Below are positions 6,477 through 8,927 of a DNA stretch of 64,000 nt, one piece after another. The stretch lies in assembly GCF_988242995.1 (NCBI RefSeq), contig NZ_OZ547043.1; one strand, given 5' to 3'. Position numbers and translations under genes: made by a program. Positions within the stretch are counted from its first letter, which is position 1. Every line of letters begins with the position of its first letter. A model generated the notes under the pieces. That model was not told where the DNA came from. It saw only the letters and a list, made by a program, of their open reading frames with translations, and did not search any database.

Positions 6477-6514
6477 AATCAATAATGTCGGATATGAAAA
6501 GCGGAAACATATCG

Positions 6515-7825
6515 ATGAAAGCGATCTTGATCCCATTTTTATCTCTTCTGATTCCGTTAACCCCGCAATCTGCATTCGCTCAGAGTGAGCCGGAGCTGAA
6601 GCTGGAAAGTGTGGTGATTGTCAGTCGTCATGGTGTGCGTGCACCAACCAAGGCCACGCAACTGATGCAGGATGTCACCCCAGACGCATGGCCAACCTGG
6701 CCGGTAAAACTGGGTTGGCTGACACCGCGCGGTGGTGAGCTGATCGCCTATCTCGGACATTACCAACGCCAGCGTCTGGTAGCCGACGGATTGCTGACGA
6801 AAAAGGGCTGCCTGCAGCCTGGTCAGGTCGCGATTATTGCTGATGTCGACGAGCGTACCCGTAAAACAGGCGAAGCCTTCGCCGCCGGGCTGGCACCTGA
6901 CTGTGCAATAACCGTACATACCCAGGCAGATACGTCCAGTCCCGATCCGTTATTTAATCCTCTAAAAACTGGCGTTTGCCAACTGGATAACGCGAACGTG
7001 ACTGACGCGATCCTCAGCAGGGCAGGAGGGTCAATTGCTGACTTTACCGGGCATCGGCAAACGGCGTTTCGCGAACTGGAACGAGTGCTTAATTTTCCGC
7101 AATCAAACTTGTGCCTTAACCGTGAGAAACAGGACGAAAGCTGTTCATTAACGCAGGCATTACCATCGGAACTCAAGGTGAGCGCCGACAATGTCTCATT
7201 AACCGGTGCGGTAAGTCTCGCATCAATGCTGACGGAGATATTTCTCCTGCAACAGGCACAAGGAATGCCGGAGCCGGGGTGGGGAAGGATCACTGATTCA
7301 CACCAGTGGAACACCTTGCTAAGTTTGCATAACGCGCAATTTTATTTACTACAACGCACGCCAGAGGTTGCCCGCAGTCGCGCCACCCCGTTATTGGATT
7401 TGATCATGGCAGCGTTGACGCCCCATCCACCGCAAAAACAGGCGTATGGTGTGACATTACCCACTTCAGTGCTGTTTATTGCCGGACACGATACTAATCT
7501 GGCAAATCTCGGCGGCGCACTGGAGCTCAACTGGACGCTTCCAGGCCAGCCGGATAACACGCCGCCAGGGGGTGAACTGGTGTTTGAACGCTGGCGTCGG
7601 CTAAGCGATAACAGCCAGTGGATTCAGGTTTCGCTGGTCTTCCAGACTTTACAGCAGATGCGTGATAAAACGCCGCTGTCATTAAATACGCCGCCCGGAG
7701 AGGTGAAACTGACCCTGGCAGGATGTGAAGAGCGAAATGCGCAGGGCATGTGTTCGTTGGCAGGTTTTACGCAAATCGTGAATGAAGCACGTATACCGGC
7801 GTGCGCTCTCCATCAAGACAAATAA
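6515..7825 (+). CDS. appA: periplasmic acid phosphatase / phytase
   Basis: Start at [12 protein letters not shown] signal peptide; RHGVRAP histidine acid phosphatase motif; C-terminus here reads ...[10 protein letters not shown] and overlaps cspH 3' end. Confidence 0.9.
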
Positions 7826-8025
7826 ACATTTGCCGCTGTTGGTCCTCGCAGGCCATTTACGCGGCAAAATTCCACGCGTAATCCTGGTATAAGCACTTCT
7901 GCGTCGCGGGGAGTGAATGCGGAAATATGGACCTGGACTTCTTTACGACCGTCGGAGGGGATAATGAATCCTTTGCCGCTTTTGCGATCAAAGGTTTTGA
8001 CAATTCCTGTCATTTTACGGGACAA
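7813..8025 (-). CDS. cspH: cold shock-like protein CspH
   Basis: 70 aa CspA-family ORF ([21 protein letters not shown]). Confidence 0.9.
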
Positions 8026-8310
8026 ACAAATTCCTTACTGAATATACTGCGCTGCACTATACGGGGTTAATAAAATAAAGCCAGCGATATTTAAGACCGC
8101 CGGACGGCTAAAATAAAATTTGCTTAATCTCAATTATCATGCGTTAATAGCTGCGTCGGTTTGAAAGACAGACAGCATACAAAGTAGTTTACTAAAGCAG
8201 TTCTCATTATCAGGCATTATCCCCTTCTTTTGAGTCTCTCTCCTGAACACTAAGTAGTTTCTGTATTAAAGCCCTGTTTGCCGAAAGGCCCAAAATGAAG
8301 GAAGTAAAAT

Positions 8311-8523
8311 ATGTCTAATAAAATGACTGGTTTAGTAAAATGGTTTAACGCAGATAAAGGTTTTGGCTTTATCACTCCTGATGATGGCAGCAAAGACGTT
8401 TTCGTCCATTTCACCGCCATCCAGAGCAATGAATTCCGCACGCTGAACGAAAATCAGAAAGTTGAATTTTCTATTGAGCAGGGGCAGCGTGGCCCTGCGG
8501 CAGCGAACGTTGTTACGCTCTAA
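8311..8523 (+). CDS. cspG: cold shock protein CspG
   Basis: 70 aa CspA-family ORF ([21 protein letters not shown]), divergent from cspH. Confidence 0.92.
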
Positions 8524-8533
8524 GGTTGCCGTT

Positions 8534-8722
8534 ATTACTCAACATCTCCATTTCCGCTGTCCATGTTGTCATGGTTCACAGTACCGCACATCGGCATTCG
8601 ATGTGACGGAGCGAAACCCTTTGGGCGCTAAGTGTATTTTTTGTAAATCGACGATGATCACCTTTGATAACGTCGCGCTGCAAATACGCACTGACCATGC
8701 GCCGCTGGATTTCACAAAATAA
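8534..8722 (+). CDS. possible small zinc-ribbon protein (ymcF-like); start codon uncertain
   Basis: Open frame encoding CPCCHGSQYRT...CIFCKS (two CxxC pairs) between cspG and ymcE; no canonical start downstream of cspG stop. Confidence 0.3.
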   Translation: MTQHLHFRCPCCHGSQYRTSAFDVTERNPLGAKCIFCKSTMITFDNVALQIRTDHAPLDFTK

Positions 8723-8927
8723 TATCAGGCTCCCTTGTGGAGCCTTTTTTATATCTGCCTTATTTTTCTTCAACGCTGTATGTATAGTAAGCGATAACCT
8801 GTTGATTATTGAATCTTTCGGGGAGATGGCTTATAACATTTCTTACCTGACCAGGGTACCGGGAACCAACACCTTACTGGCGTGTTGCTGTCTTTTAAGA
8901 CCAGAAGAGGTTAACAGTGAATATTGA
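8697..8927 (+). CDS. ymcE: small membrane protein YmcE
   Basis: 76 aa from ATG 8697 (MRRWISQNNIRLP). Confidence 0.7.
   Translation: MRRWISQNNIRLPCGAFFISALFFFNAVCIVSDNLLIIESFGEMAYNISYLTRVPGTNTLLACCCLLRPEEVNSEY

Follow-up and report, generated by a model that had tools for sequence, protein, structure and literature searches.

The small gene ymcF, its ATT start codon, and its association with cold shock protein genes in enterobacteria

Positions 8534 to 8722 (plus strand) of the stretch of DNA analyzed here (64,000 nucleotides of contig NZ_OZ547043.1, assembly GCF_988242995.1; referred to as the window) almost certainly correspond to ymcF, a real annotated gene of 62 codons, and this assignment is the best explanation overall for the open reading frame located downstream from cspG. 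The gene is under strong purifying selection, and initiation of its translation at the AUU codon at position 8534 is well supported by the comparison of loci from various enterobacteria. ymcF is already known as an annotated and published small gene and is not a new element; what is possibly new is that, in the sequences compared, ATT goes with coupling to a csp gene and ATG with stand-alone copies.

Identification of ymcF

A sequence-only reading of the window had singled out this frame and suggested a small gene named ymcF at this place. The suggestion was borne out by the RefSeq annotation of K-12, in which ymcF (b4723, 1051684..1051872, 189 nt) starts at an ATT codon equivalent to window position 8534. 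The YmcF protein of the window is identical to that of K-12, and the two genes share the same 62-aa product, the same place after cspG, and the same ATT start; they differ in the spacer just before the start codon (GTT in the window versus ATT in K-12). In both RM8352 and K-12 MG1655, the ymcF coding sequence (CDS) starts at ATT, 10 nt past the cspG stop. A 901-nt query extending from cspG to gnsA matched 5416 of the 5426 complete E. coli genomes, with at least 80% of the query present in 5393 of the 5426, and the RefSeq name of the feature under the match was "ymcF: cold shock small protein YmcF."

Residues 1 to 62 aligned with positions 1 to 62 of the Pfam model PF23641 (YmcF-like) with a score of 166.4 bits for a cutoff of 27 (E = 1.6e-49). 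Alignments revealed that the protein fits the core of this family, [FLM][RK]CPxC.GSQYR.S..D...NP.GA.CIFCK..M, including the four Cys residues. Its genomic position is also that of PF23641 members, as ymcF of the window lies 10 nt past a csp stop, a layout found in 40 of the 81 loci described below. A word-indexed protein search identified 137 YmcF homologs, all from Enterobacteriaceae or phages and all containing PF23641. The family is narrow, since an exhaustive profile search retrieved 42 clusters only among 1.84 billion representatives.

Two other family assignments were rejected. The putative zinc-binding family YnfU/ECs_2282 (NF047912) gave 17.4 bits for a cutoff of 37, with an hhalign probability of 2% against YnfU. 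Rieske iron-sulfur proteins gave 14 bits for cutoffs of 154 to 250 and a PDB E value of 0.09, and box I is absent; the likeness of CPCCHGSQY to the Rieske box II sequence CPCHGSQY is a short-motif coincidence. His13 of YmcF is not conserved: the distant members have Q, S, L, G, or K at this position.

YmcF and its paralog YnfQ were reportedly found by D'Lima et al. 2017 (J Proteome Res 16:3722) by comparative cold-shock proteomics, with confirmation of expression at low temperature, and the ATT starts of both proteins are said to have been identified genetically, by mutagenesis, in the same study. Two later articles cite that study, one (PMC10191623) as a source for bacterial AUU starts and the other (PMC12315717) in connection with four new E. 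coli proteins. ynfQ was listed as uncharacterized in 2024 (PMC11551758). Our literature search revealed no functional study of ymcF, and the main text of the Weaver et al. 2019 preprint and of the "Cryptic bacterial microproteome" preprint contained nothing relevant to this gene.

Conservation of the coding sequence

The sequence-only reading had kept the option that the frame is not a gene and had suggested a check of codon substitutions and of Cys conservation across enterobacteria. Eighty genome loci were fetched, making 81 loci with the window, and the first 44 codons were analyzed. Across the 81 enterobacterial loci, the median dN/dS ratio was 0.07 when the sequence was read in the ymcF frame, the alternative frames giving 1.87 and 2.19, and the entropy was 0.39, 0.25, and 1.23 for codon positions 1, 2, and 3, respectively. 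Cys9, Cys12, Cys34, and Cys37 were invariant in 81 of 81 loci, and Cys11 differed in 3. Since distant members read CPxC...CIFC, the ligand set would consist of the four outer Cys residues. An accidental open frame with fortuitous Cys codons in the 3' region of cspG would be in keeping with the absence of a canonical start and with the shortness of the frame. We give no credence to this explanation, which is refuted by the dN/dS ratio and the invariant Cys residues, in addition to the existence of a Pfam family and of homologs in many genera and in phages.

Organization of the cspG-ymcF locus

The leader (5' untranslated region) of cspG (8155..8310, plus strand) is part of a match to the Rfam cspA thermoregulator (RF01766) that extends over positions 8155-8577 with a score of 156 bits (gathering threshold, 78; E = 5e-42). 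According to the list of open reading frames and to the RefSeq annotation, cspG (8311..8523, plus strand) encodes 70 aa and is the upstream gene of a two-gene unit. Its TAA stop codon (8521-8523) is fused to GG, and the resulting TAAGG sequence (8521..8525, plus strand) provides a Shine-Dalgarno-like AAGG motif 8 nt before the start of ymcF. The ymcF CDS (8534..8722, plus strand) comprises an ATT start codon (8534..8536), 62 codons in all, and a TAA stop codon (8720-8722), and its delineation is based on PF23641, the identity with K-12, and the dN/dS ratio. Its reading frame is +1 relative to that of cspG.

The four conserved Cys residues are all encoded by TGT codons. The first putative metal-binding knuckle, C-P-C-C (8558..8569, plus strand), contains Cys9 (8558-8560) and Cys12 (8567-8569) on either side of the variable Cys11, and the second, C-I-F-C (8633..8644, plus strand), contains Cys34 (8633-8635) and Cys37 (8642-8644). 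Thus, the two CxxC pairs seen at the outset as lying about 20 residues apart are present, with 21 residues between them.

A terminator scan detected no terminator between cspG and ymcF and a strong intrinsic terminator (8727..8751, plus strand; 7-bp GC-rich stem AGGCTCC/GGAGCCT followed by a T run) located 4 nt past the ymcF stop. Because of this distribution of terminators, cspG and ymcF most likely form a two-gene cold-shock mRNA, in which ymcF would be cotranscribed as the second cistron behind a cspA-type thermoregulator leader. In a transcriptome study, ymcF and ynfQ changed together with cspG, cspH, and cspI (PMC11728337). Both this coregulation and the thermoregulator leader lend indirect support to an induction of the YmcF protein by cold shock. 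The Salmonella sRNA candidate STnc220 of Rfam was matched in Salmonella loci L015 and L024 (positions 1647-1726; 102 bits for a gathering threshold of 60), where it covers the last ~43 nt of ymcF and the terminator; the corresponding match in the window (8680-8760, plus strand) was weak, with 34.6 bits for the same threshold. Instead of being a separate gene, STnc220 may represent a fragment from the 3' end of the csp-ymcF mRNA. No RNA structure that would gate the ymcF start is conserved around the cspG/ymcF junction, the consensus of 21 coupled loci having a folding energy of -1 kcal/mol. An 8-bp stem pairing 8497-8504 with 8525-8532 in the E. coli fold was rejected as a conserved feature (z = -0.43 in comparison to shuffled sequences).

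Additional features of the region were noted. The annotated ymcE CDS (8697-8927, plus strand) shares 26 nt with the 3' end of ymcF and spans the terminator hairpin (8727-8745); if this terminator is efficient, transcripts from the cspG promoter would have to read through it to express ymcE, unless ymcE has its own promoter. On the other side of cspG, cspH is annotated on the minus strand (7813-8025), and the appA open reading frame (6485..7825) continues straight into its 3' end in the region 6485-8025 of the window. The etk/gfc capsule genes and IS1, which lie between appA and cspH in K-12, are absent from the window. The appA-cspH junction was found in 1675 of the 5426 E. coli genomes (e.g., strain 042) and is therefore a common polymorphism.

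Start codon of ymcF

The initial inspection had reported no in-frame ATG, GTG, or TTG codon from the cspG stop (8523) to the first Cys codon (8558) and had suggested, as one option, a start at the ATT near 8534. The absence of such codons was confirmed, the ATT at 8534-8536 being the sole plausible start, and the suggestion gained support from the RefSeq start at this position and from the occurrence of ATT, ATC, or ATG in the corresponding place across Enterobacteriaceae.

The frame is open for 87 nt further upstream, into cspG (from 8447), and contains there TTG, TTG, GTG, and TTG codons at 8462, 8474, 8489, and 8510, respectively, so that a mechanical search for open reading frames yields an 86-aa frame (8462..8722). 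Translation from one of these codons in the 3' end of cspG would generate a protein of 70 to 86 aa, and the choice of such upstream TTG or GTG codons as starts explains why some ortholog entries in the databases are 70 to 72 aa long. We nevertheless regard this possibility as very improbable. The extension is not conserved, and in many of the loci with ATT the frame is closed by a stop 9 to 27 nt upstream and offers no canonical start, which excludes the upstream TTG and GTG codons as a general start. Moreover, stand-alone orthologs have ATG exactly at codon 1, which is also where the Pfam model begins.

To compare start codons, the loci were aligned on the conserved core, and the codon homologous to the ATT at 8534 was examined. 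A csp stop was present 9 to 10 nt upstream in 40 loci, including the window, and the aligned codon was ATT in 37 of these, ATC in 3, and ATG in none. No intact csp was adjacent in 41 loci, and ATG was found at the same codon in 31 of them. The stand-alone loci with ATG, which were from Klebsiella, Raoultella, Enterobacter, Leclercia, Lelliottia, and Silvania, usually had a stronger AGGAG site. ATG was present at codon 2 in L058, L062, and L079 and three codons upstream (codon -3) in L032, L035, and L043. The location of ATG at three different codon positions indicates that this codon was gained several times independently. ATT was kept in the absence of an intact csp in six loci (L041, L058, L064, L069, L076, and L079). 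In five of the six, a short or decayed upstream open reading frame terminates either where csp used to stop or slightly beyond the start; the sole upstream open reading frame found in L064 consists of 5 codons and leaves 17 nt up to the start. The csp open reading frame of Citrobacter sedlakii runs without a stop, in frame, into ymcF, and the start codon of ymcF is ATG.

The Cys-rich peptide could also be a C-terminal extension of CspG produced by a +1 frameshift or by bypass of the stop codon, considering that ymcF is in the +1 frame of cspG at a distance of 10 nt and that a continuous Csp-YmcF frame exists in one species, C. sedlakii (L020). This explanation is hardly credible, since loci of the Kosakonia type have a 9-nt gap that places csp and ymcF in the same frame. 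The frame relation is therefore not conserved, which argues against a conserved +1 frameshift. In addition, there is no conserved slippery motif, and some loci have a stand-alone copy with ATG and no csp at all. The 130-codon frame of C. sedlakii NBRC 105722 (positions 1297-1689 of L020), which comprises residues 1 to 62 of Csp and the full YmcF, represents a natural fusion of Csp with YmcF or else a csp gene in decay; the assembly is a draft, so that an assembly error is possible.

Several individual loci deserve mention. Citrobacter braakii ATCC 51113 carries two copies (L014 and L083) on the same contig ~3.5 kb apart, an ATT copy coupled to csp and an uncoupled ATG copy. Locus L059, deposited under the title Chryseobacterium sp. 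18061, is a csp-ymcF locus of the Enterobacteriaceae type that closely resembles L060, from the companion assembly "Citrobacter sp. 18056" (one residue differs between the two YmcF proteins), and it probably results from contamination or mislabelling. The stand-alone ymcF genes of Enterobacter/Leclercia (L074, 1270-1503, and L057, 1285-1503) start with ATG behind an AGGAG site. Short blocks of the cspG leader of E. coli (CATGCGTTAAT, GTAGTTT..TAAAGCAGTTCTCAT) recur in their upstream regions, which look as though a deletion had removed the csp open reading frame between the leader and ymcF. The similarity does not extend beyond such blocks (24 nt at 92%, E = 1e-3) and is only suggestive.

Coupling between csp and ymcF translation

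All of the coupled sequences that were examined had GG directly after the stop codon of csp (TAAGG or TGAGG; T[AG]AGG), and the next 8 nt varied. A constant stop codon plus GG associated with a free spacer is the pattern expected of a ribosome-binding site (RBS) that overlaps the stop. The overlap between the stop and the RBS, the fixed distance of 9 to 10 nt, and the occurrence of ATT with csp and of ATG without it lead us to favor, by a modest degree, a dependence of YmcF synthesis on translational coupling, that is, on reinitiation after cspG. AUU would be an intrinsically very weak start, and YmcF synthesis therefore probably relies largely on ribosomes that finish cspG and then restart at AUU. 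With reinitiation, the amount of YmcF made in the cold would be set as a small and fixed proportion of the abundant CspG.

The same gene could be translated from the same AUU codon by 30S subunits that bind de novo at the AAGG RBS, with no need of cspG translation. The weak codon would then merely keep expression low, and cold induction would result from mRNA abundance alone. This mode of initiation is a serious possibility, to which we attach a less than even chance. The RBS is conserved and located at a good spacing, and ATT was kept in the six loci without an intact csp. infC is an AUU-initiated gene. RcsD-Hpt of Yersinia pestis has an AUU start (PMC10191623) and illustrates the use of this codon without coupling. 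Like ymcF, both infC and RcsD-Hpt begin with the rare AUU codon and have an RBS upstream from it. Unlike these genes, ymcF has its AUU 10 nt past the stop of a very highly translated gene and seemingly tied to that layout. We know of no IF3 autoregulation of ymcF. De novo binding does not readily account for the lack of ATG in all 40 csp-coupled loci, for the occurrence of ATG at three codon positions in loci without csp, or for the overlap of the stop with the RBS in every coupled locus at a fixed stop-to-start distance.

AUU and AUC may have been selected as a coupling feature and kept only where a csp gene or a remnant open reading frame stops on the ymcF RBS, with AUG appearing repeatedly, at three codon positions, where csp was lost or no longer terminates at that site. 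If so, YmcF synthesis would depend on reinitiation, and YmcF would be a substoichiometric zinc-binding partner of the Csp RNA chaperones. We put this model forward tentatively, as one that is possible rather than probable. The main caveat to coupling is phylogenetic nonindependence, as the ATT/ATG split follows a limited number of lineages and inertia contributes to it.

Putative metal-binding domain of YmcF

A model obtained by AlphaFold from 51 sequences, including distant ones, had a core of residues 11 to 40 with pLDDT values of 88 to 92 and a tail that was not confident from residue 45. The model based on 34 close homologs alone was unusable (pLDDT, 55). The top fold matches of the AF2 core were all zinc ribbons or zinc fingers, namely, the zinc ribbons of TFIIE-alpha, TFIIB, and TFS and zinc-ribbon ribosomal proteins, with which YmcF shares two CxxC knuckles that are carried by short beta-strands and separated by ~20 residues. 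The invariant motifs C9-x2-C12 and C34-x2-C37 provide the two knuckles that characterize the zinc ribbon or rubredoxin knuckle. Sequence searches retrieved no solved structure of a YmcF relative. The description of the frame as zinc-ribbon-like, made from the window alone, thus stands for the two CxxC pairs, which are invariant and make it plausible, and the fold comparison lends slight support to the remainder. YmcF appears to be a putative Cys4 metal-binding (probably zinc-binding) mini-domain of ~40 residues, of the zinc-ribbon or rubredoxin-knuckle type, followed by a variable tail of ~18 residues that is probably disordered. In a review of 2026 (PMC13348028), YnfQ is modeled as a metal-binding miniprotein that resembles rubredoxin.

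Paralog and phage copies of ymcF

K-12 harbors a paralog of ymcF, ynfQ (b4724, the next b-number), which is located in the Qin prophage 10 nt after cspI and has an ATT start preceded by a stop codon plus GG. YnfQ resembles YmcF in its length (62 aa), in the 10-nt gap after the csp stop, in the stop-plus-GG RBS, in the ATT start, and in the placement of the terminator. The downstream partners are also the same (ynfN and gnsB for ynfQ; ymcE and gnsA for ymcF), and the cspI-ynfQ-ynfR-ynfN-gnsB block parallels cspG-ymcF-ymcE-gnsA. YnfQ differs from YmcF by its sequence (~68% protein identity), by its location in a prophage or phage after lysis genes, and by the stop codon of cspI, which is TGA instead of TAA.

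The name ynfQ has been used for two different genes. The ynfQ of VanOrsdel et al. 2018 (PMC6001520, Table 1) encodes a 37-aa protein (1632890-1633003), whereas the RefSeq ynfQ (b4724; 1638256-1638444) encodes the 62-aa YmcF paralog. VanOrsdel et al. 2018 was therefore ruled out as a source for ymcF and ynfQ. Their gene was probably renamed ynfT, as the Qin list of the 2024 y-ome starts at 1632890 with ynfT.

YmcF homologs are encoded by a few lambdoid phages (e.g., Tritos and mEp460), often without annotation. The gene order in phage Tritos is holin, ydfR, endolysin, Rz-like gene, cspI, ymcF homolog (ATT start, 10-nt gap), ynfN, and gnsB. The csp-ymcF-(ymcE/ynfN)-gns cassette thus appears to be accessory cargo inserted after the lysis genes of lambdoid phages, and the chromosomal cspG-ymcF-ymcE-gnsA block looks like a domesticated phage accessory cassette.

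Implications

Programs that search for open reading frames miss ymcF or extend it wrongly, as found here for the 86-aa frame starting at a TTG codon in cspG, and several phage records omit the homolog. ymcF is accordingly a useful positive control, as a small gene with a non-ATG start that was found from sequence alone. The association of ATT with coupling and of ATG with stand-alone copies makes reinitiation at AUU after csp easy to test. With respect to function, our likeliest guess is that YmcF would act together with the RNA chaperones of the Csp family by binding either nucleic acid or another protein. If AUU is indeed selected for coupling, YmcF would be maintained at a small fixed fraction of Csp and could respond to changes in the proofreading of start codons by IF3 in the cold.
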